DNA from: Chiloscyllium plagiosum
Taxonomy: Eukaryota
Direction: 5' to 3'
Assembly (NCBI RefSeq): GCF_004010195.1
Contig: NC_057732.1
Location: 45,848,098-45,912,097 of the forward strand
DNA: 64,000 nt
Shown here: in pieces, positions 1,334 to 62,160 of the stretch
How positions within the stretch are numbered: position 1 is the first letter of the stretch
Layout of the letters: each line of letters begins with the position of its first letter
Notes under the pieces: model-generated
The model's input: only the letters and a program-made list of their open reading frames with translations
Told to the model about the DNA's origin: nothing
Database searches by the model: none
Translations under genes and position numbers: made by a program

Positions 1334-1554
1334 AGGAGAAAGTGAGGTCTGCAGACGCTGGAGATCAAAGCTGAAACTTTATTGCTGGAACAGCACAGCA
1401 GGTCAGGCAGCATCTAGGGAACAGAAGACTCGACGTTTCGGGCACATGCCCTTCTTCAGGAAATGAAGAAGGGCATGTGCCCGAAACGTCGAGTCTTCTG
1501 TTCCCTAGATGCTGCCTGACCTGCTGTGCTGTTCCAGCAATAAAGTTTCAGCTT
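1334..1554. mobile_element. Penelope-derived palindromic mini-element (family A), two head-to-head hammerhead-bearing arms
   Basis: Perfect 91-bp inverted repeat 1368-1458/1464-1554 with a GGAAA spacer; flanked by TSD (t)cgaaaactcttct at 1320-1333 and 1554-1567. Confidence 0.9.
1432..1459 (-). ncRNA. Minimal hammerhead ribozyme motif (PLE type)
   Basis: Minus strand reads CUGAAGA-A-GGGC(AUGU)GCCC-GAAAC-GUC. Confidence 0.75.
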
Positions 1555-2380
1555 CGAAAACTCTTCTGCCAAGTAAAGACAATGGAAACATCAGCTCTAG
1601 CAACAAATACATGGACTCACTGACTTTGGTTGCTCAGATAGTCATGCTGCTCCATGAAGATATATAACAATCTCAACCCTATCCAATCATTGTAATGGAT
1701 TCCAAACATACTGCTATATGGTCATCATGGTGAACAGGTGACCTGAAAACCCAGATTCAGGAATGTCCAGCAGTCGGAGTTGTATTGCAGGTTTGCAGTG
1801 ACGTGTGGGTTAGGAGACCAATCACAAGTCATTCAATTGCTAGTGTATTCCACAAATGCCTGGAGACAAACCAACTTCAGAGTCTGGGTTTGAGTGGGAA
1901 GTGGAGAAGATGAGCCTCTGGGTTTTCTCGACTGTGGATCCTGGAGGCATCCTTCCAAATGGCTCCCTGTTCAACTGTGCTGAATTGTTAATAATTTTGT
2001 AGAGATGTTGAAAAGGGCCGTTCTGGTATTTGTCAACAGGCACGCTGCATTGCCAGGAACAGGCTGACATTTCCTGGCCCAGCCTAACCCAAGAATACTT
2101 CCCTTCCTGTGGAGTCAGTGCTCAGGGATGTTCTGTAATCACAGCTGCAGCCACGTGGGAATTGATGACACGTCGTGATTTATCTTTTATTACATTGAGA
2201 CCATGCATAAACAATGTTTTGCTGGTACAGATCTGTCTCAATAAGTATTTTCATAGAGAACCAACCCAACAGTGCAATCTTACTCAGCTGTTTATTGCCA
2301 ACTTTTAAAAAGACAAACAAAACTTTAGCACCCCAAGAGCAGATTTCTCTCTCGCCACAAAGTGTTTAAATTTTCATTTT

Positions 2381-2402
2381 GGGGGGGGGGGGGGGGGGGG
2401 GG
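2381..2402 (+). repeat. poly-G tract (G22)
   Basis: Seen directly. Confidence 0.95.
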
Positions 2403-2539
2403 ATACACTGGAAAATGGAGTCTGGGATATGTCATCAGCAAAAAAGGGAGCAATTCCTTCCATGACACAAAACAGTTGGCTCTTAATACACTTACTGCAG
2501 TATTGGGAGGGTGACAGTCTCTGTCTCTCTAAACGCAAC

Positions 2540-2770
2540 TCCACTGCCTTTCCCCTGACTTGATTATGTGGTGAAATTCTGTCCATCTCAATCCTGAACA
2601 CTCCAATTGTCCCCCCCAGCCTTTCAGAGTGAGAGTGGCAGGAGTTCCAAACTTGTACCATCCTTTGCGTGACAAAGAGCTTTCTGATTCTAGCTCCTAA
2701 ATAATGTAGCTCTAATCCCAAGATGGCACTTTGATTCCTCTTCTTTTGTATTTATCCTATCAAATACTTA
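2540..2770 (-). mobile_element. Old CR1-type LINE 3' fragment
   Basis: Degenerate 'LFVTQRMVQVWNS' resembles the CR1 ORF2 C-terminal FFTQRVV..WN motif. Confidence 0.55.
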
Positions 2771-3569
2771 ACACCTGAAATCAGTCCTCACTTTTCAATT
2801 TGAGACCTGGTTCATCAGGACTGTACTGAACCCTACTTCTTTGACTGAATTAACCATTAATCATTGACCATTAATCATTAAGCATTAATCACAGGCTGCA
2901 CTTATGGGACCAAGAAGCAGATTACTGACCTGGATTGCCTTATAGGCTGCAAGTGATTAAAGCATTGTCCTGTAGACCTGGACTGATCCATGAACTATCT
3001 CAGTAATAGGGACTGACTGGGTAGGTTTAAATTGAATTAACTAAAGAACGACCCTAAAGACATTGGCCAATGAAGAGTCTTTTTTATAAACTCTAATGAA
3101 TAGTTATGGATTAACTCAAGGGTCATTCTATTCATCTAATCTCAACACTGCTGTATACACAAGACCAGTATACAAATGAACTATTAACAGAACTTCAGTG
3201 GCATATCAAGATAATCAGAAGTTCTATTCAATTAAGCAAATCCACTAATGTGTTTAAACTGTTTAAACACATTTAAGTTATTTCCTACTTAACGGTCACC
3301 TTTTAATCACCAAATTACTCAACCTATTCTAACTACAATATTTAAAAAAAACAAGCTTATCAAGAGCTGATGATTTATTTCCTACCAATAAAATTGGACA
3401 ATGGAACGGATTTTGTTAATGTATTCATGGTTTGCATGAGGGTCTCAAACCAGCCTTCAAGACGTACCCACACTTAGCAGATTACGATGCTTCATCTTTC
3501 TGCTCCTGCACACACTCTCTCTCAGGATTTCCTCCACTGCAGAATCATTTGAAAATGTAGCTTCAGTTT

Positions 3570-4440: not shown

Positions 4441-4906
4441 TAAGGGAGCAGGACTAACCACAGTTGCCACTTATCCAAAGTCTCTTCATGTTTTGCCACC
4501 ACTTGTGGATCAATGAATGTTTCAGAAGATAATTCATGTCATGCACTGACAAAAACTTGCAGGGTAGGGAGCAGGACAATACGTAGAATTGGAGCCCATT
4601 TTATTCTGAAGCTCACGGAGCTGGCAGGAGTGCTGTGTCAATGATGCATTACGAACAATCGCCCAACTATGACCAGCCACTTCAACACACCATCCTATTC
4701 TCTGGCCAACATTTCTATCTTGGGCTTGTTGCAGTACTCCAACAAAGCTCAGCACAAGCTGGAAGACCAGCATCTCATTTTCCGCCTGGGGACCCTGCAG
4801 CCCTCTGGACTCAATATCAAGTTCAATAACTTTAGGGCCTGAACTCTCCCATATCCTAGTCCCTATTACCACACACCAGGCCTTGTTATCACAGTCAGGC
4901 AACATC

Positions 4907-4934
4907 GACGTTTCGGGCAAAAGCCCTTCATCAG
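4907..4934 (-). ncRNA. Minimal hammerhead ribozyme motif (inverted copy)
   Basis: Minus strand CUGAUGA-A-GGGC(UUUU)GCCC-GAAAC-GUC. Confidence 0.75.
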
Positions 4935-5329
4935 GAATAAAGGCAGAGAGCCTGAAGCGTGGAGAGATAGGTCAAGGCCTCCTCCACCGCCGCTCCCTCA
5001 CCACCAGACGCATGGAAGAAGAACGCCTCATCTTCCGCCTCGGAACACTTCAACCCCAGGGCATCAATGTGGACTTCAACAGCTTCCTCATTTCCCCTTC
5101 CCCCACCTCATCCTAGTTTCTAACTTCCAGCTCAGCACTGTCCCCATGACTTGTCCAGACTTGTCCGACCTGCCTAGCTCCTTTTCCACCTATCCACTCC
5201 ATCCTCTCCTCCCTGACCTATCACCTTCATCTCCTCCCCCACTGACCTATTGTACTCTATGCTACTCTCTCCCCACCCCCACCCTACTCTAGCCTATCTC
5301 TCCACGCTTCAGGCTCTCTGCCTTTATTC

Positions 5330-5357
5330 CTGATGAAGGGCTTTTGCCCGAAACGTC
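5330..5357 (+). ncRNA. Minimal hammerhead ribozyme motif in PLE 3' pLTR
   Basis: CUGAUGA-A-GGGC(UUUU)GCCC-GAAAC-GUC, downstream of the GIY-YIG fragment. Confidence 0.8.
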
Positions 5358-6978
5358 GATGTTGCCTGTCCTTGGATTTTGCCTGTCCTCGGATGTTGCC
5401 TGAACTGCTACGCTCTTCCAGCACCACTAATCCAGAATCTGGTTTCCAGCATCTGCAGTCATTGTTTTTACCTTGTTATCACAGTGTCTGCTAATAAACA
5501 CAATCCATTGTTAGCCATTAACAGTCCCCATAAGTAGCTAATCAGCCTCATAGCCAGATTCTAATCTATTCCTTTGTCTGTCCAACTGTTCTTTTCTCTC
5601 TTTGAGCTCTATCCCCACCTATCATTTACTCCTTACCCCCTCCCCAAACTCTTTATGTCTTCAGCATAAGAACTGACGCTTTCCTAGCTACCACCAGTTC
5701 TGAGGACCCAAAACGTTAACTTTGATTTCCCTTTACAGACGCTGAGCTTTTCCAGCAAATTTCTGCTTATGACCAGAATAAACACAAACAATCATGAAAG
5801 GGAAAAGAATTGCAATGCCAAGGATTTGCTGGTATGCATGTCAGAATAACAAGCACCATTAATGAATCTTCATGGATAAGCAGTTAAAATAATGAGCTTA
5901 CTCATTAACATACTCTCCCCTGTCCAACATACAGCAGTGCTAGCAATGAAGTGAATATCATTTGACCATTTTGAACAATATAATTCGTAACAGCAATTAA
6001 AGAGTTACAGTACAACCAAAACAAAAATCAGATATCCCCCACACAGCCATGCAGTCAAAACAAAACACAGATCTGACAAACTGTTGTGGAGGTCTTATAT
6101 TTGTTCATTGGTTCCTCTTTTTTCCCCAAGACATATTTTGCTTAAGCCACAAAATTGCTTTCTCGATGATGTACCACAACATTCAATTCAGACGACTTCC
6201 AAATAATTCCCAAATCAATCAACACCAATCTCTGCTTGGCTCAAGCTAGTTGCAGGATCGATGGGTTTACTGTATGAAATCTAAAGGAGTCTAGTGCACA
6301 GCAACATAATGGATGGGGCTCTGTAAGGCGAACTTACTGGATGTATACTAATGACATCTTAATTCGGAGTCAATGAGACATTAAATGAGGAATTGGATCT
6401 AGGTTTTACTTTGAATTTCCAGCAGGGGGCAGAACTTACCCCCTTAATTTTGCACCTCTCTCTGGAAATACACCTCAGAGTGACGAGAGTCTACATCCCA
6501 ATAAAAGAACATCGGAGGTTAGGTTAGGGATTCAAAAGTCGGCTTGGAAAAATAAATTTAGATTTGAGTGTGTGTGCCTGAAAATGCTCCTGACCCCCTT
6601 AAAGAAAGGACCGTCCCTTGGACTCTTTCCACTGCCCCCATTTTTCTCTCAACAACTGAGCTCAGAAATTTGTACAACACCAATGACTCAACTGCATCGG
6701 GCTGCTGTACAGTTTGCTTGTTTTGCCGAGCTATCCCACAAAGGAACCTGTTTTTGAGCATGCCTGACCGAGGTTCCAGCCCCGAATCAAATCCTCAAGC
6801 CAATCCAAAACATTCAATTAACTTCAGAAGTGAAATCATTCCTGTTGCTATATCGCCCAGGCGACAAATGACCCAAACACAGAAAAGGAGATAATTCATG
6901 ATTTTATCTGTTTTTGATTGAATGATGGATGTTTTCCAAACGACCAGAATTCTTTGTGCCTCATGGAATGATTTTTAA

Positions 6979-7296
6979 AATCCCTAGTGTGGAAACAGGC
7001 CCTTCAGCCCAACAAGTCCACACTAATCCTCCGAAGAGTAACCCACCCAGCCCCATTCCCCTTATATTTACCTCTGACTAATGCACCTAATCTACACACC
7101 CCTGAACACCATGGGCAATTTAGCATGGCCAATTCACCTAACCCGCACATCATTGGATTGTGGGAGGAAACCGGAAATCTGGAGGAAACCCACACAGACA
7201 CAGGGAGAATGTGCAAGCTCCACACAGACAGTTGCCAGAGGCTGGATTCGAACCCGGGTCCCTGGCGCTGTGAGGCAGCAGTGCTAACCTCTGCCC
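6979..7296 (-). mobile_element. HE1-type shark SINE (tRNA head, V-SINE core, CR1-derived tail)
   Basis: Minus strand has a B-box GGTTCGAATCC, core TGTGTGGAGCTTGCACATTCTCCC and tail GGGCCTGTTTCCACACT. Confidence 0.9.
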
Positions 7297-7851: not shown

Positions 7852-8030
7852 AAGATTAGAGTGGTGCTGGAAAAGCACAGCAGGTCAGGCAGCATCTGAG
7901 GAGCAGGAAAATTGACGTTTCGGGCAAAAACCCTTCATTCTGCTCCTCAGATGCTGCCTGACCTGCTGTGCTTTTCCAGCACCACTCTAATCTTGACTCT
8001 AATCTCCAGCATCTGCAGTACCCACTTCTG
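7852..8030. mobile_element. Penelope-derived palindromic mini-element (family A), centre deleted
   Basis: Inverted arms agattagagtggtgctggaaaagcacagcaggtcaggcagcatctgaggagcag; partial hammerhead; degenerate TSD attct(a/g)ggt(g/t)acttgtc. Confidence 0.85.
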
Positions 8031-8121
8031 AGATTCTGGGTTACTTGTCCCATGACATAATCAGTAGGCTGTCATCTTTCCTTCAGCACGCAATGCTTCA
8101 CGGCATATTCTGAATGAGGTC

Positions 8122-8862
8122 ACAGAGTCATAGAGATATACAGCACGGAAACAGACCCTTAGGTCCAACTCGTCCATGCCAATCAGATATCCTAACCTCA
8201 TCTAGTCCTATTTGCCAGCACTTGGCACATATCCCTCTAAACCCTGGCAACATCCTTGTAAATCTTTCCTGAACCCTTTGAAGTTTCACAACATCCCTCT
8301 GATAGGAGGGAGGTCAGAACTGTACACAATATTCCAAAAGTGGTCTAACCAATGTCCTGTCCAGCCGCAACATGACCTCCCAAATCCTACACTCAATGCT
8401 CTGACCAATAAAGGAAAGCACATCAAACGCCTTCCTCACTATTCTATCTACCAGCGACTCTACTTTCAAGGAACTATGAACCTGCACTCCAAGATCTCTT
8501 TGTTCAGCAACATTCCCCAGGACCTTACCATTAAGCATATAAGTTCTGTCCTGATTTGTCTTTCCAAAAAGCAGTACCTCACATTTATCTAAAGTAAACT
8601 TCATCTGCCATTCCTTGGCCCATCGGTCCATCTGATCCAAATGCCATTGTACTCTGAGGTAACCTTCTTCGCTGTCCACTACACCTCTAATTTTGGGGTC
8701 ATCTGCAAACTTACTGACTATACCTCCTATGTTCACATCCAAGTCATTTATATAAATGATGAAAAGCAGTGGACCCAGCACCGATTCTATTGGCACACCA
8801 CTGGTCACAGGCCTCCAGTCTGAAATGCAACCCTGCACCACAACCCTCCGTTTTGTATCCAA
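8122..8862 (-). mobile_element. CR1/HER1 LINE ORF2 RT fragment with internal deletion and 3' tail
   Basis: ORF 8314-8862: VTSGVP..SVLGPLLFIIYINDLD...SKFADD...LEYCVQF; CR1 tail at 8122-8240. Confidence 0.95.
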
Positions 8863-9219
8863 ACTATTTCTGTAGCTAAACTATTCCTTGGGCTCAGAGC
8901 TTACTATTGGTGAGTTGCATGTGATCAGGAGACAGTTCATTACGCCAGAGAGAACAGACATTAGCATGAATCATCAGTCATGATGGCTAGCAATAGATAG
9001 TGAACTCAATGAGCAAACGCTCTGTACCCAGATCCACAATAAGGCAGGAGTCAGCCTTCGGTCGTCTCTTTCAGAATTCATTCATTTCACTGAGAAACAT
9101 CTGAGAATACTGACCAGGCATGCCGCCTTCTGGATAAACATGGTAAAGCGGTTCGGGCACTGGGCAACAACAGAATTTTCAAAGAAGTGATCAGGATGCC
9201 CAAACTGACGTCTTTCCAC

Positions 9220-9390
9220 ATTCCGATGACACTGCAATCCTGTTGCTATAAATTCTGTGATGTATGCTTCTGCCCCAAAACCACCTGAAGCAGCAGCTAG
9301 TGCCTCCAAATAAACCTGTTGGACTATAACCCGGTTTTGTGTGATTTTTAACTTTGTCCACCCCAGTCCGACACTGGCATCTCCAAATCT
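9220..9390 (+). mobile_element. Penelope-derived family B tail with deleted hammerhead stem II
   Basis: Matches family B consensus aaataaacctgttggactataacc...ggcatctccaaatc. Confidence 0.8.
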
Positions 9391-10996
9391 TTCCTAATAT
9401 GGCAGGCTCCTTGCTTTACATGTGGAATAATAAGCACACACTCATCCATTACCATGTTGTCCATGCAGACTCCAATTAAATGTATGCAACTTAAATGAAT
9501 TTCCAGACAAAAGTACAAAAGCCCCTTACTCAAGTTTCTTCTCCCATGAATGTGCTCAGGTCATGAATTGGGACAAACCAAAATCTCCTGGGATAAAAGC
9601 GCTACCTACTGGAATAAACAGGCTACAATTAACTGCTACTTTCACAAAAGGGTGGGCATTTGAGAGAAACTTGGTTCAGGAGGGGGAGACATCTTTGTTT
9701 TTATTAATGCTGCAAATAACAAATCCCCTATAATTACTCTAGACCACAATAATTTCTTGAATATCTGCTAATGAAAAACAGCAATGGGTTTAAAATGGAA
9801 ACTTTAGGCTCGACTAACTTAAAATTAAAAACACATCTTTAAACATCTCGCGTACTCAAGAGCTCGCATCATATGGCAACAATTTTGGAAAGTACACTTG
9901 CATGAAAGACAACATCTATATCATGTTTTGGGTTACCATAGCAGTTTGGAAAATACATCATTGCTGATAATATTTTCATGCTAAGGCAATGTTCTGTTCA
10001 GAATTGTTTTGCCAAGTAATATTTGGAAAACAAAAAGGAAATCTGGTTGTAAAAATATTGGACAAGGGAACAGTAACTTGTAACAAAGATTTTGATGGAC
10101 AAAGTAACTGCCTTATTATATATTTGGAAAAGACTTATCACCTTGGATGGTTACTATCAGTGCTGCTTCCACAGTAAATAAAAAGCGCTTCTTCATTTCC
10201 GATGAAGGTTGTAATATTTCGCCTCTAGAGACACAAGCTTATGACAGGAAAATGGAGTGAGACATGAAACAAGTCAAGGGGCACAGTAACTTTTCCTCTT
10301 GGACAATCACACAAACACAAGAATGATGTGAAAACTTGGCATTTTGTACGTTTTAAAGCTGACTTTATCAAAAGTTTAATCCAGGTGCCAGCACTGAACA
10401 TACACAGTTAGGTATTCATCAATCTGAGTCGATATTGGTTGTTGTTTCTGCTTTTTTTCCAGACCAACACCATTTCAAATTATTTTTCCATTTAATTTTG
10501 TGTCCATCAAGAAGTGGGAATGCTAGTGTTATTGAAAGGAGTATCTATCCTACACTTAACATTCACACCAGGGATCCTAAGAATGGATAAAGCTCATAAT
10601 ACTGGGCCTCAAACCAGTATGACTCTACCTCTATGGACAGAAAGTGAATGGAATCTTTGAATTGAGATGATTGATACAGTGGGCTCCCCTTTGCAATTAA
10701 AACACATTAGTTATTCAGTTCATGTGGACTCTGGAATTCACTGTCTCAGAAGGAAGTGGATGTGGAGGGATTGAATATTTTTAAGGTGAAAGTCAATCGA
10801 CTGCCTTGACTAATAAGATTTTAAATGCATTAGGAGGGGGTGGGAATGTAAAATTCTAGGCACGAACAGATTGGCCATGTTCGTACTGAATGGGGAAGTA
10901 GATTCGAAAAGGGCCAAGAGGCATATCTCTGTACCCACCTTTTATATTCGTGTGTGTTTGGAGGGACTCAATTACCAATCATGCGAACACAGTAAA

Positions 10997-11194
10997 CATG
11001 ATTTGGAGATGCCAGTGTTGGACTGGGGTGGACAAAGTTAAAAATCACACAACACCAGGTTATAGTCCAACAGGTTTAATTGGAAGCACACTAGCTTTCG
11101 GAGCGCCGCCTGATGAAGGAGCAGCGCTCTGAAAGCTAGTGCTTCCCAATAAACCTGTTGGACTATAACCTGGTGTTATGTGATTTTTAACTTT
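10997..11194. mobile_element. Penelope-derived palindromic element (family B)
   Basis: Inverted arms around 11100; TSD gaacaca(g/a)taaa at 10985-10996 and 11195-11206. Confidence 0.9.
11110..11138 (+). ncRNA. Minimal hammerhead ribozyme motif (family B)
   Basis: CUGAUGA-A-GGAGC(AGC)GCUCU-GAAAG-CUA. Confidence 0.7.
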
Positions 11195-11633: not shown

Positions 11634-12131
11634 GCAGAGTCAGAATCAGTCCGATTCCAGTAAGTCTTCAGATGTGCAGTGTTGCCAAGAAAGGGAGTGG
11701 TTTTATAATTCATCTGTGGTCAAAAGAAGTGTCAAAAATACTCAGCTCCATTCATGTTCAGAAACCTGCTTGTAAACTGGCTGAAATATTTGTCATTACA
11801 GTGCAAATGATACTTGCAAAAACATGGATTTAAACAAAAGCTTCCGCATATATTGCACCTCAGCGTGTCTCGCAGGACATCTTAAAATACTCCAGCCACA
11901 ATGGATTGTTCTCAAGTTGCAAACACAGTGACCAATGTCTGCACAGCAAGAATCCAGAATAAACCAATCACCTGTTGAGATGGGCCTTTCCTTTGGTTGA
12001 GTTGACTGGGGTGAAGCAGGAAGCTCCTTTCTGTGTAAATCATGTCCCAGATTTTTCATCTTCAGCCAAAGGCAGGCAGTGTTTTGGTTATAGCCTCGTT
12101 GAATTATAAAATTGAACAGCACAAAAAAAAG

Positions 12132-12220
12132 CCCTGAAGGGCTCATGCCCGAAACGTCGATTCTCCTGCTCCTTGGATGCTGCCTGACCTGCTGCGCTTT
12201 TCCAGTAACACATTTTCAGC
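12132..12220 (+). mobile_element. Family A PLE mini-element
   Basis: ctgaagggctcatgcccgaaacgtcgattctcctgctccttggatgctgcctgacctgctg; core lacks 3 nt. Confidence 0.85.
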
Positions 12221-14008: not shown

Positions 14009-14206
14009 TTGACAGTGTGGTGTTGGAAAAGGAGCAGGAGAATTGACATTTTGGGCAAAAGCCCTTCATCAGGATTCCTAATGAAGGGCTTATGCCCGAA
14101 ATGTCGATTCTCCTGTTCCTCGGATGCTGCCTGACCTGCTGTGCTTTTCTAGCAACACACACTTGACTCTAATCTCCAGCATCTGCAGTCCTCACTTTTG
14201 CCCTCT
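14009..14206. mobile_element. Family A palindromic PLE mini-element
   Basis: Head-to-head cores cccttcatcagga-ttcctaatgaaggg; TSD gttagaaat(g/a)gag at 13996-14008 and 14207-14219. Confidence 0.85.
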
Positions 14207-17177: not shown

Positions 17178-17488
17178 CGGCACGGTAGCTTAGTGGTCAG
17201 CACCACTGCCTCATAGCACCAGGGTCCCAGGTTCGATTTCAGCCTCGGGCAACTGTCTGTGTGGAATTTGCACGTTCTCCCAGTGTCTGCGTGGGTTTCC
17301 TCTGGGTGCTGTGGTTTCCTCCCACAATCCAAAGATGTGCAGGTCAGGTGAATTGGCCATGCTAAATTGCCCATAATGGTAGGTGCATTAGTCAGAGGGA
17401 AATGGGTCTGGGTGGGTTACTCTTCAGAGGGTCGGTGTGGTCTTGTTGGGCCGAAGAGCCTGTTTCCACACTGTAGCGAATCTAATCT
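17178..17488 (+). mobile_element. HE1-type SINE
   Basis: A/B boxes, V-domain, tail ctgtttccacactgtag..atctaatct. Confidence 0.9.
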
Positions 17489-19069
17489 TACTCTGCATGT
17501 GGGATGTTGGCAGGTTGCAAAGTGACAGAGACCCAACCAGATCTTCAGTAGATTTCCCTATTTCCTGCTGTCAGATCCCTTAGAGAGACAGAGAAAGATT
17601 GGTCCCTTGGAACCACTTCCCATCCCAAGATGATCATAAGCTTGTCAGCAACAGTGGGTGAAGCCATCATGTCAACATTAATTGGCAATTTGAGCTTCAA
17701 GTGGCCTCTGGCCAGGAAGGCTGTCTAAATGTACGGGGGAAGAGTGTGAATGGCAGAGTGTCCACCCTGTAACTCTCTTGCGCAAATGGAAACCCCCTCA
17801 CTCCACGTCAGAACTCACCTCCAGGAAGGCATTAACTAGTTCCACCATCCACTGCCCTCAGTCATGTTCACAAACTTCAGACGGGCACCAAATCTCATAA
17901 GCTCATGAAGAGAAAACCCATAGCTCGCAGCAATAAGCTAAATAATTATAAATAGTGCCCTTGTCCAAACAAATCATTGCATGGTGCTTCCCAATTGTAA
18001 CTGGACAAACACGGATACAATACCAAAGAAGGAGATAGTATGATATGTAGCAAAACATTCACAAGAGAGGACAGATTTAAGGAGCATTTTAAAGGAAGAG
18101 AGGTGAAAAGTTGAGGAAAATAATTCCAGAACGGGCACGTCTAGAAGACAAGGCCACAAGAGGCCAGTGTTGGAGGAACATAGAGTTCTCACAGGGTTAG
18201 AGGTGGCTATAAAGACAAAGAAGGCTCAAAACTACAGAAAGCTTTGAAGATGAAGATTATAATATTAAGACTGAGGCGCTGTTGGAGAGGAGCCAATTTA
18301 GGTCAGTGAATGATGTGTGAGCACTATTTGATGCCAAGGACCTTAGGTTATTTGCAAAACTGTAATCTATTGAGAAAGCATCAGCTTCAGGGGGCAAAGG
18401 AGAAAACTGCGGGACAAGGATAAAAAAAAATTACCATTCTAATTCTGGAAAAAGTACAAAATGGTTATTAGGTACGCTGAAGAAGAGAGTTCTTGTTTGA
18501 AACAAGTTCCAGTTGAAAGCATGATTGACCCATAACATATACACATTTCTGTAATTATCATGAGATGGTGAAAGACATATCACAGTGTGCTCCACAACAC
18601 AAAAAAAAACTTCAGAAAGGTACTGTAATTAGCTGTCTCTATTTCCTTTCTGCAGCCTCTACAAAGAGCTGTGTACCCTCCTCAGCTGTGCAGCCAACTG
18701 TAGATGGGAGCCTTGCTCTGTCACTGTGGGCTGGAACTGGGATAATTGCTGGCCTTTTCAATCTGTCTCCTTGCATTAACCCACTGGGAAAAGCCTGTGA
18801 CACAAACAGGCACATGAATGGCACACACTGCGCTAAATGCGTACATCAGAAATACTGGGAGGGGCCAGTGGGGGAGAAAAGGAGAAATGGAACTTAAACT
18901 CCCTTCTATAAGTTACATCAAAGAATTTGGCACACACTTTATTTGCATGTTTGATGATGCGATTTTAATCACTAACCTTACTTCTGACCTTGTCTGAATT
19001 CCCTCCACAATAACCCAGCTGAAATAAACTATTGATATAATCTAGTTTACCTCGCAAGGACGCTCTTCA

Positions 19070-19307
19070 CCCTGAGAGAGGGAGATACTGTAGGGTACAC
19101 ACCGCTCTCCCCATTCGGGAGATACTGTAGGGTACACACCGCTCTCCCCATTCCCCTGGGAGAGGGAGATACTGTAGGGTATATCGCTCTCCCCATTCCC
19201 CTGGGAGAGGGAGATACTGTAGGGTACACACCGCTTCCCCATTCCCCTGGGAGAGGGAGATATGGTAGGGTACACACCGCTCTCCCCATTCCCCTGGGAG
19301 AGGAGGT
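19070..19307. repeat. 47-bp minisatellite (about 5 units)
   Basis: Unit ggagatactgtagggtacacaccgctctccccattcccctgggagag. Confidence 0.95.
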
Positions 19308-19419
19308 ATTGTGTATGCCTTGCTCGGTCTAATCACCTTATGATCTGTTTGTCCTTGCATATTAAGCTCTGCCCATACTGCACACAAAAAAAACTTTTCA
19401 TGTTAATAAATCAAATCAA

Positions 19420-20066
19420 TGGAGTAGTGTACACAGCTCACTCCCCGGGAACTGGTATACATGGCTCACTCCCTGCCTCCCTGGGGAGTGGGGTACACTG
19501 CTCTGAATCTGGGGGGGGGGGGGGTACACAACTCTCTCCTCACTCTCTGGAGATTGAGGTACAATGTTCTCTCCCTGCTTCCCCCTGGGGAGTGAGGTAC
19601 ATGGCTCTCTCTCCCCAGGGAGTGGGGTATAGGCTCTCTCCCTGGAGAGAGGGGTACACGGCTCTCTCCCCGTTCCCCAGGGAGTGGGGTACACGGCTCT
19701 CTCCCTGGAGAGAGGGGTACACGGCTCTCTCCCCGTTCCCCAGGGATTGGGGTACACGGCTCTCTCTCCCCGGGGGAGTGGGGTACACAGCTCTCTCCGC
19801 TCCCCGGAAAGTGGGGTACACGGCTCTCTCTCCCCGGGGGAGTGGGGTACATGGCTCTCTCTCCCCGGGGGAGTGGGGTACACAGCTCTCTCCGCTCCCT
19901 GGAAAGTGGGGTACACGGCTCTCTCTCCCCGAGGGAGTGGGGTACACGGCTCTCTCTCCCCGGGGGAGTGGGGTACACTGCTCTCTCTCCCCGGGGGAGT
20001 GGGGTACACAGCTCTCTCCGCTCCCCGGAAAGTGGGGTACTCTGCTCTCTCCCTGCTCCCCGGGGA
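19420..20066. repeat. GC-rich minisatellite, related 28-34 bp units
   Basis: Unit approx. gctctctctccccgggggagtggggtacacg; explains all long ORFs 19262-20183. Confidence 0.95.
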
Positions 20067-21345: not shown

Positions 21346-21426
21346 GTTACAATCGCAATGGAAAGAGTGCACCAACTAGTGTTATCCAATTATTATTATT
21401 GGCAATTATTATATTCTCATCTGTTT

Positions 21427-42912: not shown

Positions 42913-42945
42913 GACAAACCAAATGGCTCTCCTGTACTGTGCCGT

Positions 42946-43257: not shown

Positions 43258-43674
43258 AACTAGACCAGCCAGGCCCTTTGGATACCAACCTAAGGGAAAG
43301 ATGGTGGCAGCAAAAATACCCGCTGGGTTTTTCACCAAGGTGATACAACATCAACAATCACATGGACAAGAATGAAACTGACTGTGGAGTTATCAACAAA
43401 ATACCCAGACAAGAGCCTCTGCAGACTGTAAACAGAGCTCATGAGCAAAATTAGCAACTTCCCCTCATCAAAGCACAGTGATTTCTGGAACAAAATGCAG
43501 TGAGTGGAGTTGACTTAATCTCTTTTACAGATTGTATAACATCAATCCCAGTCACTTTCGGCGAAGCAGCGTTTAGGCTTCATTGACAGGGGAGTTATCT
43601 CACCATCTTCAGTCTAGCCAGGACCAACAATGTCACTGACATGCAGCCACATTTGTAACCAGGAACACGTTCAC

Positions 43675-46354: not shown

Positions 46355-46455
46355 CCAGAGTTCTGAAGAACAGTCATATTAGACTCAAAACATTGACTCA
46401 GTCTTTCTCCACAGATGTGCAAGACCTGCTGAGTTTCTCCAGCACTTTCTGTTGT
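46355..46455 (+). mobile_element. Family C-like PLE tail
   Basis: gagttctgaagaacagtcatattagactcaaaacattgactc. Confidence 0.7.
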
Positions 46456-46919
46456 TAGCTCCTCCGGGATAGTTGTTGGGCCAACGTTATTGATCCAAAT
46501 ACCCTTCAACCAGTGCAGGAGACTAATCATCAGAGTTCTCACTCCCTGATCCCTACTGAACACCCTAAACTTGCATGGTTGCTCGCTAAATATAGGCAAC
46601 TAATCTTGCAATGCCAACCACGTTCAAGTAGTTTGCTGCTTCTTTCTACCTTAAGTTCCCTACGTTACAAGAACAGAGCATTATTGACATCCTTATGAGC
46701 AAACTTTGATGGGAGGTGAAGGTAAAAAAGGGAGAAGGTTGGGGGATGGGCTAAAGAAAAATTAATAGGACAAAGAAAATAAATACCCCTTGCGTTGCAA
46801 CGAAAGGCATGAACACACCTCAATATTGCACGGCTTAATAAAATAAAAAGTGGTTAAAAAAATTCCCTGTAGGATTTCACTCAAACATCTAACTTCCAAG
46901 GAACAACCTGGGAGCAAAT

Positions 46920-47040
46920 TACTGCAAATGCTGTATCTGTACTGAAACAAGTAGTGCTGGAGATCACAGCAGGTTCATGCAGCGTCCATGGAGAGAGAGC
47001 AAGCTAACGTTTTGAGCCTCGATGCCTCTTCATCAGATTA
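46920..47040 (-). mobile_element. PLE mini-element, further family (D)
   Basis: Minus strand CTGATGAAgaggcatcgaggctcAAAACGTTagc followed by gacgctgcatgaacctgctgtgatctccagc. Confidence 0.7.
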
Positions 47041-47058
47041 TCATCTTGTCGAGGTGAG

Positions 47059-47188
47059 GAGGAGAAAATGAGGACTGCAGATGCTGGAGGTCAGAGTCAA
47101 AAAGTACAATGCTGGAAAAGCACAGCAGGTCAGGCAGCATCAGAGGAGCAGGAGAGTCGCTGCTTTGAGCATAAACTCTTCATCAGGA
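47059..47188 (-). mobile_element. Family A PLE mini-element
   Basis: Minus strand cCTGATGAAgagtttatgctcaaagcagcgactctcctgct... Confidence 0.82.
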
Positions 47189-47388
47189 TGAACACGTTCC
47201 ACATTTCAAGGTAGAGCTGGTGCATTATTATAGCACCTCTTCCCATCTCACCATCTCTCAATGACTCCACCTAAGTGTGCCATGGACTTGATAAAAAAAA
47301 AGGCCTCCTACTGTGGCTTTTGACAATGTGACAATTACTGACCTGGAGTACAGCATCTTTTTGATCTACTCCTGACATATAGCAGATT

Positions 47389-49079: not shown

Positions 49080-49370
49080 CATTCATATCCCAGTTCCAAC
49101 CTTCCAACTCAGCACCACCCTCATGACCTGTCCAACAGGTACCTATCTGCTCCGGCCTCCTCTCTGACCCATCATCTTTGCCCCCACCTCCATCCACCTA
49201 TTGCACTCTCAGCTACCTTCCCCCTCAGTCCCACCCCTCCTCCCATTTATCTCTCCACCCCCTCGGCTCACAGCCTCACCCTGAAATGGCTTTTGCCCAA
49301 ACCGTCGATTCTCCTGCTCCTCGGATGCTGCCTGACCTGCTATGCTTTTCCAGCGCCACACTCTCAATCC
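49080..49370 (+). mobile_element. Penelope-like 3' fragment with decayed family A tail
   Basis: Homologous to 5110-5430. Confidence 0.8.
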
Positions 49371-51769: not shown

Positions 51770-52085
51770 TAGAATCCCTAGAGTATAGGTGGAGACCATT
51801 TGGCCCATTAAGTCTGCACCAGCCCTCTGAACAGCATCCCACTCATCCCTGTAACCCTGCAATTCCCATGGCTGGTCCACTTAGCCTGCGCATCCCTGGG
51901 CACTATGAAGCAATTTAGCATGGCCAATCCACCGGAACCCACACATCTTTGGACTATGGGAGGAAACTGGACCGCCTGACAGACACAGGGAGAACATGTT
52001 AACTCCACACAGACAGTCGCCCAATGCTGGACTCGAACCCGGGTTCATGTGCTGTGAGGCAGCAGTGCTAACCACTGAGCCATTA
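51770..52085 (-). mobile_element. HE1-type SINE inserted in an older DeuSINE-like element (about 51600-52290)
   Basis: SINE head and V-domain on the minus strand; Deu-like cagcactgaagggagtgcaatactgccagaggtg upstream. Confidence 0.85.
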
Positions 52086-53242: not shown

Positions 53243-53334
53243 CCTGAAGAAGTGCTTATGCCCGAAACGTCGATTCTCCTGTTCCCTGGATGCTGCCTGA
53301 CCTGCTGCGCTTTTCCAGCAACACATTTCCAGCT
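53243..53334 (+). mobile_element. Family A PLE mini-element; hammerhead 53244-53271
   Basis: CUGAAGA-A-GUGC(UUAU)GCCC-GAAAC-GUC; TSD ctacttaatt at 53233-53242 and 53335-53344. Confidence 0.87.
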
Positions 53335-54830: not shown

Positions 54831-54960
54831 GAGGAGAAAGTGAGGTCTGCAGATGCTGGAGATCAAAGTTGAAACTTTATTGCTGGAACAGCACAGCAGG
54901 TCAGGCAGCATCCAGGGAACAGGAGATTCGACGTTTCGGGCACAGGCCCTTCTTCAGGAA
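54831..54960 (-). mobile_element. 130-bp PLE mini-element (family A) with perfect TSD
   Basis: 14-bp TSD tgaacagcaagtac at 54817-54830 and 54961-54974. Confidence 0.92.
54930..54957 (-). ncRNA. Minimal hammerhead ribozyme motif, intact
   Basis: auuc-CUGAAGA-A-GGGC(CUGU)GCCC-GAAAC-GUC-gaau; stem I auuc/gaau fully paired. Confidence 0.8.
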
Positions 54961-55944
54961 TGAACAGCAAGTACACCTTACTGTTCAATTACATACAATT
55001 TTGCACTTAGAACAGAGTCATCTGAACTGGTTAGCTCCTCCCAGAAATAGTCCTTTGTACACTAATGGGTGGAGTTCATCTTGTGGCATCAGTTAACCCT
55101 TTGAGGAACGAGTAGACTTATACAGCCCTTTCTATCATGGATCTGAGGGAAGCTATCAAGAGCATGAATCAGGCAACTTCCAGGTCAATATTAATATCTG
55201 CACCATCAGCCCAAACATATTTCAGCAAACCAGAGAGAACCGACTCAAACTTGGGATATTGCTGATGGATATGGTTCGATATCACAGTGAATGTAAGTAC
55301 AGAACGACCAGGTGCACAGCATTCAGTCCCTTGAGTCTGCTCCTCCGCTGTTTAATACAATGACGGTAGATCTCCTCTCCGCCTCAACTCCACTTTCCTG
55401 CCCGCTCTCCATAACCTTTCAACCTATTACAGGTACTCATTAAAAGCCTGTCGGTCTATCTCCTCCTTACGTTAAGGCTGGGTGACCTATTCATTGTGGA
55501 GAGGTGCAGGTTTTACAAAACTACATGCAAGGCCATTGAGAATCCTTTAAAACAGAAAATGCATCTGTGTTTCACAATTATGCTTCACGGACTAAAGACA
55601 AGTGTTTTCTAAAAGCATTTCTGACAAAACATAATGCACTTGACAATTCACAGAGTTAGAGTAAGAATGTATGAACACAATGGAGGTCAGAAGACATCAA
55701 GTGGATAACAGACTAAACTTCCACTACTTTCTTGGGAACTTAGCAGGCACATGAAACCCCACAGTGGAAAACCCTCCTGTTTTTTTTGGAGGTAATGCTT
55801 CTTTATCAAGCTGAGTCATGATCCAATCAACTGGATGTGACCATTGTAAAAGCCTTTGGCCTTCACTTTGAGAATGCACTGCCTTTTTCAGGATAAAAGT
55901 TGAGTCATTTCAATTATGCAAAATTTGAGAGCTTTGCAATGACA

Positions 55945-56485
55945 AAAGTCATAGGGCTACACAGAATGGAAACAGTCTGTATAACATTTAGTCCAACTAG
56001 TCCATGCCTATCATAAACCCAAAACTAAACTAGCTCCACCTGCCTGCATTTGGCCAATATCCCTCCAAATCTTTCATACTCATGTATTTATCCAAATGTC
56101 TTTTAAATATTGTTACTGTACCCGCATTCACCACTCCCTCTAGAAGTTTATTCTGCACGCGAACCGCTGTGTAAAAAACACTGCCCCCATGTCTCTTTTT
56201 AATTCTTTCTCCTCACATTAAAAATATGCTCCATAGTCTTGAAATCCCCCACCCTAGGGAAAAGGCAGCTGCCACTCATCTTATCTATACCATTGATGAT
56301 TTTATAAACCTCTATGGTCACCCCTCAACTTCCTGTGCTCCAGTGAAAGAAATCCTAGCCTATCCAGCCTCTGCTTATAACTCAAACCTTCCAATGCTGG
56401 CAGCATCCTTGTAAAACTCTTCTGAACCTTCTCCAGCTCAACAATATTCTTCCTATAACAGGCTACCAGAACTAGACACAGTACA
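55945..56485 (-). mobile_element. CR1-type LINE 3' fragment
   Basis: Reverse complement of CR1 ORF2 end and tail. Confidence 0.85.
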
Positions 56486-56694
56486 ATGATACAAAGTTAT
56501 CGAGTGCCTCACTTTTCAGTGAATTTAGACAGGGGCTTCATTCTACAGCAGTTTAATCATGCAGCTAATGTCCCATGTACTAGCATAGAAAATTGGGTCC
56601 CAGCTGTAAATATAATGCTGCAGTTGATTGCAAGGAGAGGCTTGACTTCATTGCAGCACAGGGGAGTAGGACTTCCTGGCAGCTGATGAGCTGT

Positions 56695-57830
56695 TGTTTG
56701 TAATATATTTTAAATGATTTGGAGTGAAAATGTTGGTGGTCTGATTAGGAAGTTTGCAGATGACATGAAAATTGGGGGAGTTGTGGATAGTGAGGAAGGA
56801 TATTCATCAGTTGGAGGGGTGGGTGGAGAAATGACAGAGTTTAATCTGGACAAGTGTGAGGTGATGCATTTTGGGAGTTCAAATGTCAGAAGGAAGTCTG
56901 CAGCAAGTGGCTGGATCCTTCGGAACACTGAGATACAGATCATGGGATCCAAGTCCTTAGGTGCCTGAAAGTGGCAACACAAACGGATAAGGTCATAAAG
57001 GAGGCATACTGCAGGCGTGCCTTCATCGGTCAGGGCTTGGAATATAAAGGATGGCAAGTCATGTTGCAACTACACAAGACTTTGGCCAGGCCACATTTGG
57101 AGTACTGTGTGCAGTTCTTGTCGCTGCACTACAAGAAGATATGGAGGTTTTGGAGAGGGTGCAGAAGAGGCTACAAGGATGTCACTTGGATGGGAGTACA
57201 TTAGCTGTATGGAGAGAGCAGACGAACCTGGATTATTTTCACTTGAGCATCAGAGGCTGAGGGACTACCTGATGGACATATATAAAATTCTAAAAGAAAT
57301 GGGTAGGGTGGCTAGTTGGAGTTTCTTTCCCAAGTTGGAAATGTCAAATACTAAGGAGCTTGGGTTTAAGGCAACAGGGAAAGTTTCAAAGGAGTTCGTA
57401 AGGTAAGTTTTTATATTAAAAAAAAGGTTAGTAGGTGTCTGATATTCGCTGCCAAGGGAGGTGATAGAAGCAGGTAACAATAGCAATGTTTAATAAACAT
57501 TTGGCAGAACATGAACAGGCAGGTAGTAGAGGGATATAAACCATGTGCAGACAGATGGGATTAGCTTTGAAAGGTATAATAGTTGCCACAGACAACTATT
57601 GGGTCAAAGGCAAAAGTGAGGACTGCAGATGTTGGAGATCAGTGTCTACATTAGAGTGGTACTGGAAAAGCAGAGCAGGTCAGGCAGCATCTGAGGAGCA
57701 GGAAAATCAAAGTTTCGGGCAAAAGCCCTTCATCGTCCTGATGATGAAGGGCTTTTGCCCGAAACTTTGATTTTCCTGCTCCTTGGATGATGGGTCGAAG
57801 GGCCTGCTTTGTATTGTTCTGAGCCAAATG
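56695..57830 (+). mobile_element. CR1-type LINE RT fragment, frameshifted
   Basis: 'LIRKFADDMKIGGVVDSEEG', 'ARPHLEYCVQF', 'EVLERVQKRL'. Confidence 0.92.
57607..57790. mobile_element. Family A palindromic PLE element nested in a LINE tail
   Basis: 41-bp inverted arms 57694-57734/57743-57783; flanks tgggtc(a/g)aagg. Confidence 0.87.
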
Positions 57831-58719: not shown

Positions 58720-59020
58720 GGACTAGAATTCCCTTCACAAAAGGCAGAAGATTGCAATGTGGGGAAGTTGTATGAAACATGCATCAAGTCTTGGTTAGAC
58801 CACATCTTGAGTACGGCATGCAGTTGTCTGGTTGATCATGTTGAAACAAAAAGAAAATGCAGGGACTGAAGAAGGTTTACAGGAATATCAGCAGAAACAG
58901 GGGGGGTACATGGGTCAAGCTGCATCTCTGTTCATGTTCTTAAAAAAAGGCTGAAGGTTGATCTAATAGAGGTTATTAAAATTTATGAAATGCAGAGTGA
59001 ATACAGAGAGAATGTTCCAC
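58720..59020 (+). mobile_element. Old CR1-type LINE fragment
   Basis: Degenerate 'LVRPHLEYGMQL'. Confidence 0.65.
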
Positions 59021-59082
59021 CTCTGATGAACAGTCACCGAGGACGCAAAATATTCACTCTGTCTTTCCACAGAAACTGTTAG

Positions 59083-59270
59083 AGACAAAAAAAAACTGCA
59101 GATGCTGAAATCCAAGGTAGACAAGCAGGAGGCTGGCAGAACACAGCAAGCCAGGCAGCATCAGGAGGTGGAGAAGTCAACGTTTCAGGTGTAACCGCTG
59201 TGTTCTTCCAGCCTCCTGCTCAACTGCCTTTCCATAAATAATAGCAGATTTCCAACATCTGCATTGTTTT
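59083..59270. mobile_element. PLE-derived palindromic element, further family
   Basis: actgcagatgctg...agcaggaggctggcagaacacagc / gctgtgttcttccagcctcctgct inverted; partial GAAACGTT core. Confidence 0.65.
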
Positions 59271-59569
59271 GCGTTTATTATTAACGCAGACAACATCTCC
59301 TGTTGTGGGGCGGTCAAAGCTAGGGCTCACCATTGCAAGAGTCATCTACAAATCTGAGAAAAAAAACAGCCTTCACTGAACAAGTGTTAAGAATATGGAA
59401 CTCACTACAGTAGGAAATGGTTCAGGGATGTGTGGGCAACTTACTGCAGATGCTGGAATCTGTACTGGAAATGAAAAACACTGGAAATCACAGTGGTTAG
59501 GGACAAAAAAAACGCAGATGCTGGAATCCAAGGTGGGGGGGAGAGGTGGAAAGAGAGAGTGAGAGAGAG

Positions 59570-60810
59570 GGGCATGAACTTGATTGAGTTTTTTTGAAGA
59601 AGTAACAAAGAGGATTGATGAGGGCTGTGCAGTAGACGTGATCTATATGGACTTCAGTAAGGCATTCGACAAGGTTCCTCATATGGGAAGCTGGTTAGCA
59701 AGGTTAGATCTCATGGAATAAGGTGAATAAATTGAATAAATCCAACTAGCATTTGGATATAGAACTGGCTCAAAGGTAGAAGACAGAGGGTGGTGGTGGA
59801 GGTTGCTTTGACTAGTGGTGTGCCACAAGGTCCGCTAGTTTTCATCATTTATATAAATGCTTTGGATGTGAACACAGGAGGTATAGTTAGTAAGTTTGCA
59901 GATAACACCAAAATTGGAGGTGTGGTGGACAGTAAAGAAGGTTACCTCAGATTACAACGGGACCTTGATCAGATGGGCCAATGGGCTGAAGAGTGGCAGA
60001 TGGAGTTTAATTTAGATAAATGCGAGATGCTGCATTTTGGAAATGCAAACCAGAGCAGGACTTATACACTTAATGGTAAGGTCCTGGGGAGTGTTGCTGA
60101 ACAAAGAGACCTTGGAGTGCAGGTTCATAGCTCCTTGAACATAGAGTTGCAGGTAGCTAGGATAGTGAAGGCAGCGTTTGGTATGCTTTCCTTTATTGGT
60201 CAGAGCATTGAGTGGAGGAGTTGAGAGGTCATGTTGTAGCTGTACAGGACATTGGCTCGACCACTTTTGGAATGTTGTGTGCAATTCCGGTCACCTTCCT
60301 ATAGGATGAACGTGATGAAACTTGAAAGGGTTCAGAAAAGATTTACAAGGATGTTACCAGGGTTGGAGGGTTTGAGCTATGGGGAGAGGCTGAATAGGCT
60401 GGGGCTGTCTTCCCTGGAGCATCGGAGGCTGAGGGGGTGACTTTATAGATGTTTATAAAGTCATGAGGGGCATGAATAGGATAAATAGACAAGGTCTTTT
60501 TCCTGGGTGGAGTAGTCCAGAACTAGAGGACATAAGTTCAGGGTGAGAGGGGAAAGTTATAAAAGGGACCCAAGGGGCAACTTTTTCACACAGAGGGTGG
60601 TGCGTGTATGGAATGAGCTGCCATAGGAAGTGGTGGAGGCTGGTACAATTGCAACATTTAAAAGGCATCTGGATGGGTATATAAATAGGAAGGGTTTGGA
60701 GGGATATGGGCCAAGTGCTGGTAAATGGGACTAGATTAGGTTCGGATATCTGATTGGCGTGGATGAATTGGACCAAAGCGTCTGTTTCCATGCTGTACAT
60801 CTCTATGATT
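59570..60810 (+). mobile_element. CR1/HER1 LINE RT and 3' end
   Basis: DVIYMDFSKAFDKVPH; TSGVPQG...FADNTKIGG...; stop codons and deletions. Confidence 0.95.
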
Positions 60811-61724
60811 ATATTTGTCATTTTCACTTTGATTCAGGGATGCATGCTGCGATGGAGTGATAAGAGAAGGGGAGGTTTACGAACATGGATTTAGACAAGG
60901 AACAACAAGAGGAGGTTGCAGTGCAAATACTGGTTGGCTGAAGGGCCTGGTTCTTTATGCTGCAGATCCTGTGCAAATTGTAACCTTACGTTCTACTGGA
61001 GGGATGGAGTTTCTGAAGAAAACATTGGCCAGGCAGTTGTGTGCGGTGGAAGGGGAGAGAATAGGTCAGTTTCCAAACTGATGACCAGAGCCAGGTCATG
61101 GGGTCACCAACATCTGCAAGTTCCCCTTCACGTCACTTACCATCTTGACTTATTTTGCATTAATTTGTGGAGTGTACGCATCGCAGGTTTGGGGCACCTT
61201 TGAAACTGGACTCTGAATCATAGCACCGTTCCTCATTGTTACTGGAATGCCCTTCCTAACAACACCGTAAATGTTATCTACACCACACCAATTGGAGCAG
61301 TTCAGACTGGCAGTTCCATTACACCTTCTTCAGTGTAACTACGAGTGGACGATAAACATTGGCCCAGCCAGCGGTGCACACATCCTGTGAAAGAATCAAA
61401 CAACATTGGCACAGATGGCTTCACCCCCTCAGTGACTGGGATCGAAAAGAAAATACCAGGACTCCTGGTTCCTTCCGGCTTGACCGACACCATGTGGATG
61501 GGAAGTAGGGGCCAAATCGATGACATTGCTCCCAATGTTCCAGCAGCTTCCCGACTCCCATTCTGAAAGCTCACTCAGGTGAAGCGCTATATCAGAAGGC
61601 AGAAAGGCAGTCCACCCCCTACAGGCAGTGGAATGCCTCAGGATAGCCTGGATGCAGGACTTGGGGACAGAGGTCAAAATGGACAGTTACGGAATCCATA
61701 CCTCTGTCTGTGCCCCTAAAAAAA

Positions 61725-62160
61725 GTTTTTAAAAAAATCACAACGCCAGGTTTTGTCCAACAGGTTTATTTGAAAGCACAAGCTTTTGGAGAGCTGCTCC
61801 TTCATCAGGTGTCTGGTGAGGTTGAGCTGTCACTTTTTTTTAATATATTGATAAAACTTTAAGTTATCTTGGGGCTATAACTGGAAAGTAATTTTGGGAT
61901 TTACATAATCAATCAAAACCTGCATCCTCATTCTAAGTGATTAAAGATTTTACAGCAATCTAGGTTTGTTCAGTACATCGCAGCAGTTGTATGACACTTT
62001 GATCTTTTGCTATAAATTCTGTGTCCTATAATCCCCGCTCTACTAACTACCTGATGAAGGAGCAACGCTCCGAAAGCTAGTGCTTCCAAATAAACCTGTT
62101 GGACTATAACCTGCTGTTGTGTGACTTCTAACTTTGTCTCAGTCCAACACCGGCTCCTCA
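61725..62160. mobile_element. Family B PLE with inverted partial pLTR
   Basis: Inverted arm 61725-61810 versus 62050-62135; internal region homologous to 22890-23110. Confidence 0.87.
62051..62079 (+). ncRNA. Minimal hammerhead ribozyme motif (family B), intact
   Basis: uac-CUGAUGA-A-GGAGC(AAC)GCUCC-GAAAG-CUA-gug. Confidence 0.8.

Follow-up and report, generated by a model that had tools for sequence, protein, structure and literature searches.

The dense occurrence of hammerhead ribozyme motifs in a 64,000-nt stretch of the genome of the shark Chiloscyllium plagiosum (contig NC_057732.1, positions 45,848,098 to 45,912,097; hereafter the window, which was selected for the hammerhead feature itself) raises the question whether these motifs form a working repertoire of self-cleaving RNAs, as proposed in an earlier note on this DNA, or are remains of the transposons that carried them. 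Results of our analysis favour the latter, with a probability that we place at about 0.82. The units, each consisting of a hammerhead plus a tail, would be 5'-truncated 3' ends (pseudo-long terminal repeat, pLTR, plus tail) of three families, comprising at least five lineages, of endonuclease-containing Penelope-like elements (PLEs), and these fossils would mostly be unable to cleave host RNA.

A profile search with hammerhead plus tail detected 42 units (20 of family A, 10 of family B, and 12 of family C), which group by insertion into 34 loci, and gave no match in the reversed window that served as a decoy. The units span 4,603 bases, i.e., 7.2% of the window. The previously reported "more than 20 insertions" is too low a number, because part of the core is present in 39 of the 42 units. 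A strict scan (CUGANGA, stem II of at least 4 bp, GAAA, one palindromic pair, and UH) recognized eight intact cores, with C3 at 1459, 4934, 22889, and 54957 on the minus strand and at 5330, 11110, 33036, and 62051 on the plus strand, whereas 200 dinucleotide shuffles of the window gave 0.03 on average and never more than 1. The published descriptor of minimal hammerheads, as printed in the supplement of PMC4209133, gave five matches (1459, 11110, 22889, 54957, and 62051), all in families A and B, and none in 500 shuffles. None of the 12 family C units is an intact copy, so the motif given for this family is indeed a reconstruction, and it is through the reconstructed motif alone that family C matches the descriptor. 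All 12 positions named in the earlier note carry the motif described and are exact, those on the minus strand (1432, 4907, 54930, 22861, and 30374) being N17, with C3 at 1459, 4934, 54957, 22889, and 30403, respectively. Tail-only profiles added five weak matches (E 0.06-0.33, with decoys at E 0.44-0.7); pieces shorter than about 30 nt are invisible to them. An Rfam scan of the window at E<=10 gave 23 matches, none of them to a hammerhead family, and its microRNA-like matches were discarded, being in reality the head-to-head hairpins of hammerhead insertions.

The pattern of sequence differences between families indicates what has been preserved in these motifs. Stem pairs were counted on 20 motif-anchored copies, because a MAFFT alignment, not used for this purpose, shifted families A and B by one column relative to each other. 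An extra A follows A9 in all 20 copies, the G10.1-C11.1 pair is formed in 19, the palindromic 15.2-16.2 pair in 17, and stem II comprises 4-5 bp. Double changes were found at six pairs: 2.1-1.1 is U-A in family C against C-G in the other two; 2.2-1.2 is A-U in family B against U-A in A and C; 10.2-11.2 changes from G-C to A-U twice, in one subfamily each of A and C; 10.3-11.3 is either G-C or A-U; 10.4-11.4 is C-G, G-C, or U-A; and 15.2-16.2 is C-G or G-C. By our count, no fewer than eight compensatory events are represented in about five lineages, which are too few for a formal test. The statement that the stems keep pairing while differing in sequence between families is thus confirmed. The "invariant core" is invariant at the level of lineages but not of copies, as G12, which lies in a CpG, is intact in 24 of 38 units and lost in the other 14, in 13 cases to A. 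Stems that covary between lineages around a core without lineage-level change argue, as far as sequence comparison goes, that the master elements were selected for the hammerhead fold.

Stem I is the least regular part of this fold. The uuc/gaa stem I previously ascribed to family A is present at 54957 only, and the stem usually consists of 2 bp followed by a U-U mismatch (5/9 copies); in the copy at 33036 the 2.1-1.1 pair is lost and no stem I is left. That of family B (25373-25415) may reach 5 bp with one bulged U, and the row of Marsupenaeus japonicus in the alignment of PMC4209133 shares the CUA site and has an almost identical stem I. In family A monomers with UGAUGA (5330-5360, 4904-4934, and 33036-33066), the 5' core is predicted to pair with the cleavage site, giving an inactive fold that might serve as an off state. 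In the copy at 5330, a 17-bp tandem repeat (5358-5402) has taken the place of what normally comes directly after the cleavage site.

Selection acted on the transposon, and the copies decay neutrally after insertion. When compared to the family consensus at non-CpG sites, the core is substituted at 12 of 334 positions and the tail at 201 of 1744 (3.6% vs. 11.5%), which we rejected as a sign of core conservation, since subfamily differences inflate the tail value and family B alone shows no difference. Substitutions shared between loci, mostly representing master lineages, are confined to the tail (core 0/334, tail 88/1560), and those private to a locus number 12/334 and 48/1560, respectively (3.6% vs. 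3.1%), with a private core/tail ratio of 1.17 (0.63-2.17, P=0.61). Tails of less than 70% identity were left out of the private count; the seeds favoured good cores, and the test therefore leans towards finding conservation. A few selected copies may be present among the decayed ones.

The neutral decay bears directly on the proposal that the copies are a working ribozyme repertoire cutting intronic or other nascent transcripts of the host. Three motifs (22889, 54957, and 62051) are complete and unmasked, and the high copy number could permit dimers in trans; besides, PLEs are expanded in whale shark introns (bioRxiv 10.1101/443036, PMC8455134), and the depletion of Xenopus retrozymes in genes hints at a cost (bioRxiv 10.64898/2026.07.22.740005). 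However, four of the eight intact cores (1459, 4934, 5330, and 11110) are masked: in a fold of the complete insertion, the opposite, antisense arm of that insertion pairs with them, so that P(G10.1-C11.1) is 0. For all eight intact cores, the double-hammerhead fold was calculated to be 6-30 kcal/mol less stable than the dimer minimum, for secondary structure with no tertiary terms. The closest intact pair of the same strand and family is 3.5 kb apart with both members masked, and the three unmasked motifs have no intact partner of their family on their own strand within 50 kb. As for the host, a crude exon scan of the window returned nothing convincing, and Pfam gave no matches in 150 of 565 unmasked stop-free segments. 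Published experiments point in the same direction: single minimal hammerheads were not cleaved in vitro and multimers were cleaved weakly (PMC4209133), and only one of nine Xenopus dimers was cleaved (bioRxiv 10.64898/2026.07.22.740005). The cutting of host introns by these copies, as inferred in the earlier note, thus appears highly improbable. What the head-to-head copies are predicted to supply is long double-stranded RNA, of which they would be a large source.

To judge from their protein remnants and relatives, the carriers are probably endonuclease-containing PLEs of the zinc-linker (Neptune-type) group. Four units are preceded by peptide remnants, which comprise only the GIY-YIG domain's C-terminal end, at 4645-4842 and 39548-39616 in front of family C, and at 4970-5113 and 40157-40306 in front of family A. 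A profile built from three of them matched 399 proteins; among 20 of these that were scanned, GIY-YIG was found at E<0.01 in nine (in two at the Pfam curated cut-off), nothing in six, and other domains in the others. A second search, with one matched protein of a ray as the query, gave 41 proteins, the top named ones being from Hypanus, Mobula, Rhincodon, and Rhinoraja. Longer relatives of the remnants comprise reverse transcriptase (RT) motifs, a C-x4-C-x2-C linker, and GIY-YIG. This zinc-finger linker, which is present in all seven long relatives examined at a position upstream of the sequence kept in the window, marks the Neptune and Nematis clades when located between the RT and the endonuclease. 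The remnant at 40157 is 64% identical to an RT-GIY-YIG protein from Rhincodon typus, the whale shark. By themselves, these protein relatives support an elasmobranch as the host and do not separate shark from ray. Via these homologues, the pLTR is placed 3' of an open reading frame (ORF) ending in GIY-YIG in families A and C, at two loci each. The reported position of the motif 3' of GIY-YIG remnants therefore holds for these two families, with the remnants limited to the C-terminal end of the domain, and not for family B, whose link to PLEs rests on the anatomy of its insertions because it has no ORF remnant in the window. The descriptor match, the match to the published consensus, and the GIY-YIG linkage of A and C jointly uphold the assignment of the motifs to minimal type I hammerheads of PLE terminal repeats.

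Downstream of the ribozyme, families A and C have in common a block of about 30 nt (e.g., 33080-33110 and 21290-21320), which has an open frame from ATG and also resembles a branch point, pyrimidine tract, and acceptor; the family B tail contains a similar acceptor-like stretch. A protein-binding site, an ORF start, or an intron end are possible roles of the A/C block. The MLPDLL frame downstream of the ribozyme, considered as an ORF start, was rejected, as it had no match in 187 fetched proteins.

The anatomy of the insertions is that of PLEs. Eight loci are head-to-head pairs, each with one long and one short arm and a one-sided tail of about 36 nt. Target duplications of 10-17 bp, above the 95th percentile of a random control, were found at 14 of the 26 loci tested, including all eight two-armed insertions (11-17 bp), which thereby match the published anatomy of an inverted 5' copy, a 30-40-nt tail on one end, and a target duplication. 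The arms of one insertion are 86-100% identical, even where both depart from the consensus, and must therefore derive from the same or a sister template. The 3' ends (the divergent 59090 copy was left out of the end counts) fall at two sites in 17 of 22 measured cases, C3+79-90 or C3+119-127, which are the same in long and short copies. A short hammerhead-plus-tail unit might alternatively be a non-autonomous SINE (short interspersed element)- or retrozyme-like element copied from short masters by PLE proteins. Solo units with their own target duplications (12130, 53243, and 54831) and similar 5' ends are compatible with such an element, as is the fact that short units are far commoner than those with ORF remnants (4 remnants vs. 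34 loci); retrozymes do derive from pLTRs, also in one chondrichthyan (bioRxiv 10.64898/2026.07.22.740005). We nevertheless regard it as unlikely, given the identical 3' ends of long and short copies, 5' ends that scatter over about 15 nt, with 7 of 28 family A and B arms extending further upstream, and the lack of tandem arrays of the unit in the window.

The distribution of the 5' ends is informative as to the template of the truncated PLE copies. In 18 of 28 family A and B arms the 5' end lies within 10 nt of C3, and in none at the cut site; copies of a cut template would start at C3+28/29, and the nearest observed start is at +33-35. The stop rate within 10 nt of C3 is some 19-fold higher than in the flanks (P=2e-11, the arms of one insertion not being independent), and among single-arm insertions alone 6 of 11 have their 5' end there (P=9e-5). 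The test left out all of family C and the 23727 locus, a 19-nt piece (23733-23751) that lies inside another repeat and agrees at every base, private ones included, with 22873-22891 of a family B copy; it is a local templated copy and not an independent insertion. Missed tail-only copies do not explain the hot spot, as the tail-only profiles gave just the five weak matches. A pile-up at the 5' edge of the ribozyme rather than at the cut site, which is possibly a new observation, points to run-off copies of uncut RNA, and the simplest interpretation has RT running off an RNA whose 5' end lies near C3. In long copies of families A and C, and not in B, YYANWYY, which we take to be the initiator consensus and which 1.2% of positions match, occurs at C3-4. 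Long copies also contain a YAG after pyrimidines 2-18 nt upstream, and in Drosophila an intron ends at helix I (PMC4209133).

On these grounds, each pLTR would contain a minimal hammerhead of type I, loopless in stem III and held by selection in the master elements, where its cleavage would probably require either a dimer or the protein of the element. The RT-endonuclease would produce staggered nicks 10-17 nt apart, and reverse transcription would start from one of two internal sites, about 85 or about 125 nt downstream of C3. RT may then pass through the uncut ribozyme and mostly stop just past it, for which the simplest cause would be that the RNA begins there, and priming from both nicks would give a head-to-head insertion with one long and one short arm. 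Window copies made from uncut templates would also suit a motif kept mainly as a non-catalytic signal (a protein-binding fold, a promoter, or an RT stop), with cleavage being incidental. Some PLE clades have no ribozyme, and the Anolis element does not need cleavage for insertion in vitro and yields no cleaved ends in RNA-seq (PMC11167929). Yet the Anolis motif does cleave, only in the presence of the PLE protein and with C3-G8 rescue (PMC11167929), and in the window families no lineage differs in the catalytic nucleotides or the NUH site, with stems I, II, and III covarying. A mainly non-catalytic function seems improbable in view of these data.

Several results weigh against our interpretation of the units as truncated PLE copies and of their 5' ends as run-off ends. 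The remnants have no Pfam match of their own, family B has no GIY-YIG remnant in the window, and the window contains no full-length element, PLE RT remnant, or tandem pLTR pair in direct orientation around an ORF. In word-based protein searches, none of 10 candidates matched the family C remnant and the single candidate for a family A unit read in its antisense frame did not match either, and a protein atlas search gave no usable match. No clear target duplication was found at any of the six family C loci tested. The 5' hot spot could equally well be due to an RT stall, to fold-back priming (as proposed in PMC3846280), or to a splice junction as to a start site. Moreover, the 5' ends were read partly by eye and the hot-spot interval was set after seeing the data.

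We put forward only tentatively, and consider doubtful, that the genome contains 100,000 or more intact minimal hammerheads, more than any count found in print, owing to a PLE transcript start a few bases upstream of the ribozyme and to internal priming on the first ~130 nt, which would mass-produce run-off insertions, with long/short hairpins arising from both nicks. If this were true, shark genomes would record PLE priming in vivo and amount to a natural deep mutational scan of this minimal hammerhead. The five descriptor matches in the window correspond to 78 per Mb (Poisson 25-182). With genome sizes of about 2.9 Gb for coelacanth and 1.5 Gb for Xenopus, published counts amount to ~1.4 and ~6 per Mb, which this density would exceed 57- and 13-fold if the window is typical. 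The counts in question are ~4,000 minimal hammerheads in 6 families for coelacanth and 9,000 in 8 families for Xenopus (PMC4209133); over 6,000 in 16 families are known from Acropora, and up to 120,000 retrozymes from axolotl (PMC7229834). Scaled to 3.2 Gb, the genome size of the whale shark, the window density gives 80,000-580,000 copies, as extrapolated from one window picked for this feature. Of the earlier suggestion that both scale and family diversity may be undescribed, the first part stands, in that a density above the published vertebrate counts is possibly new if the window is typical, and the second does not, as comparable diversity is known from coelacanth, Xenopus, and Acropora. 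Both the type of ribozyme and the element that carries it are already known. Should the density hold genome-wide, sharks would offer hundreds of thousands of dated copies, allowing transposon selection to be separated from host selection, the loss of sense-strand cores in introns to be tested, and the starts and stops of PLE reverse transcription to be mapped in vivo.

The motif, its solo copies, and its multi-family diversity are already published (PMC4209133), as is each of the features that the earlier note lists. The minimal hammerheads described there by Cervera and de la Pena in 2014 share with those of the window the type I topology, CUGANGA-H, G10.1-C11.1, GAAA-N-N'-UH, a palindromic loopless stem III, a short stem I, and an extra base after A9, as well as their occurrence mostly as solo copies, with opposite-strand pairs and several families per genome. 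They differ in that many of their stems II are longer than the 4-5 bp of the window copies, and no chondrichthyan is among the 56 rows of Fig. S3 of that paper. Penelope elements have been reported in whale shark (bioRxiv 10.1101/443036, PMC8455134) and hammerhead retrozymes in one sampled chondrichthyan (bioRxiv 10.64898/2026.07.22.740005). A literature search that left most subscription papers and Repbase uncovered yielded neither a count of minimal hammerheads in sharks nor a description of the 5' hot spot. The non-LTR retrozymes (PMC7229834; bioRxiv 10.64898/2026.07.22.740005) are likewise short, non-coding, and tied to pLTRs, with hammerheads of type I, but they are defined as tandem repeats with a complete hammerhead in consecutive units, often a canonical one, whereas the window units are dispersed, single or head-to-head. 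The Anolis carolinensis Poseidon element PAc (Frangieh 2024, PMC11167929) also has a hammerhead in its pLTR and two RT start sites bounding the tail, one of which, 111-118 nt into the ORF beginning at stem II, corresponds to ~C3+119-126, in agreement with C3+119-127 for the long end in the window; its enzyme cleaves both DNA strands. PAc belongs to the Penelope/Poseidon clade, whereas the relatives of the window remnants contain the zinc linker of Neptune and Nematis, and the comparison involves no intact ORF from the window. The conserved intronic hammerheads of amniotes, presumably those named HH9 and HH10 in Rfam, are type I in vertebrate genomes as well. They are few and conserved (PMC7229834), in contrast to the many neutrally decaying copies of the window.

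One family A insertion lies within an older element. The nested insertion at 4645-5783 comprises an old family C element (+), with its C-terminal GIY-YIG remnant at 4645-4842 and its decayed hammerhead-plus-tail, with an internal deletion, at 5700-5783, and a young family A element that interrupts it; family C is therefore older than A at this site. The family A insertion (4896-5470) has a perfect 15-bp target duplication (4881-4895/5471-5485) and consists of an inverted 5' arm (4896-4971, -) with an intact core (C3 4934, N17 4907), 76/76 identical to the forward copy, followed by the element itself (4972-5470, +) with the GIY-YIG remnant to 5113, a pyrimidine-rich untranslated region (UTR), an intact core (C3 5330), and the tail. 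In the head-to-head insertion at 1334-1553, the long arm (-) contains the tail and the intact, masked core (C3 1459, N17 1432), the other arm (+) is short, and the arms are 90/90 identical, with a 14-bp duplication (1320-1333/1554-1567). Further head-to-head pairs of family A are located at 7852-8032 (no complete core, 17-bp duplication), 14009-14203 (both cores mutated, 16 bp), 32059-32202 (incomplete core, 14 bp), and 57611-57790 (stem III mutated, 11 bp). The solo units of this family include the best-formed hammerhead of the window, at 54831-54960 (-; C3 54957, N17 54930, 4-bp stem I, 14-17-bp duplication), those at 12130-12216 (+), which starts inside the core and has the short 3' end, and 53243-53334 (+; C3 53244, intact core with a stem II mismatch, 10-bp duplication), and two of subfamily A2, at 33030-33163 (+; intact core, C3 33036, stem I broken) and 47059-47192 (-; C3 47186, core mutated). 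Longer copies are found at 40157-40548 (+; GIY-YIG C-terminal remnant, UTR, and a hammerhead with no 5' core) and 49081-49368 (+; ~200 nt of UTR, core partly deleted).

Family B is represented by head-to-head insertions at 10997-11194 (intact core on the plus strand, C3 11110; 12-bp duplication) and 23232-23454 (cores mutated, 11 bp), by units with a UTR at 9226-9393 (+; core partly deleted), 22768-23110 (-; ~220 nt of UTR, intact core, C3 22889, N17 22861, 12-bp duplication), and 61880-62159 (+; intact core, C3 62051), by a solo unit at 61729-61811 (-; C3 61808, G12 mutated), and by a unit at 25355-25461 (+; C3 25381, A9 mutated) with an inverted tail piece in front. Family C units occur at 21238-21345 (+; C3 21244, stems II and III decayed), 28537-28646 (+; C3 28542, decayed), 30305-30411 (-; C3 30403, core intact, N17 changed to G), and 40770-40906 (+; C3 40800, core mutated). 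A second old element of this family (39548-40084, +) has a GIY-YIG remnant at 39548-39616 and a decayed hammerhead (C3 39995). Fragments are present at 26612-26661 (+) and 38528-38577 (-; tail with no hammerhead). Units of subfamily C2 lie at 34586-34712 (-; C3 34681, with a short inverted piece) and 46358-46462 (+; C3 46363, G12 mutated), and a C2-like one at 46924-47047 (-; C3 47036, G12 mutated). The stretch 59012-59198 contains two old divergent units, C-like (+) and A-like (-).

Other repeats are also present in the window. Fragments of long interspersed element (LINE) reverse transcriptases, which we take to be CR1/L2-like, are present at 8317-8880 (-) and 59763-60221 (+), both with Pfam RVT_1 matches, and further ones near 42086-42915, 55938-57263, and 62708-63125. 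A repeat of 300-340 bp, presumably resembling the HE1 SINE of elasmobranchs, has about 10 copies (6976-7293, 17178-17493, 21634-21941, 27451-27793, 29696-29991, 30813-31159, 42924-43261, 51770-52082, and 63440-63721). An AT-rich inverted repeat of ~150 bp (21422-21579), unrelated to the hammerhead units, is possibly a miniature inverted-repeat transposable element, and minisatellites of 31-46 and 33 bp as well as a 47-bp G run are located at 19080-20070, 35215-35369, and 24821-24867, respectively.

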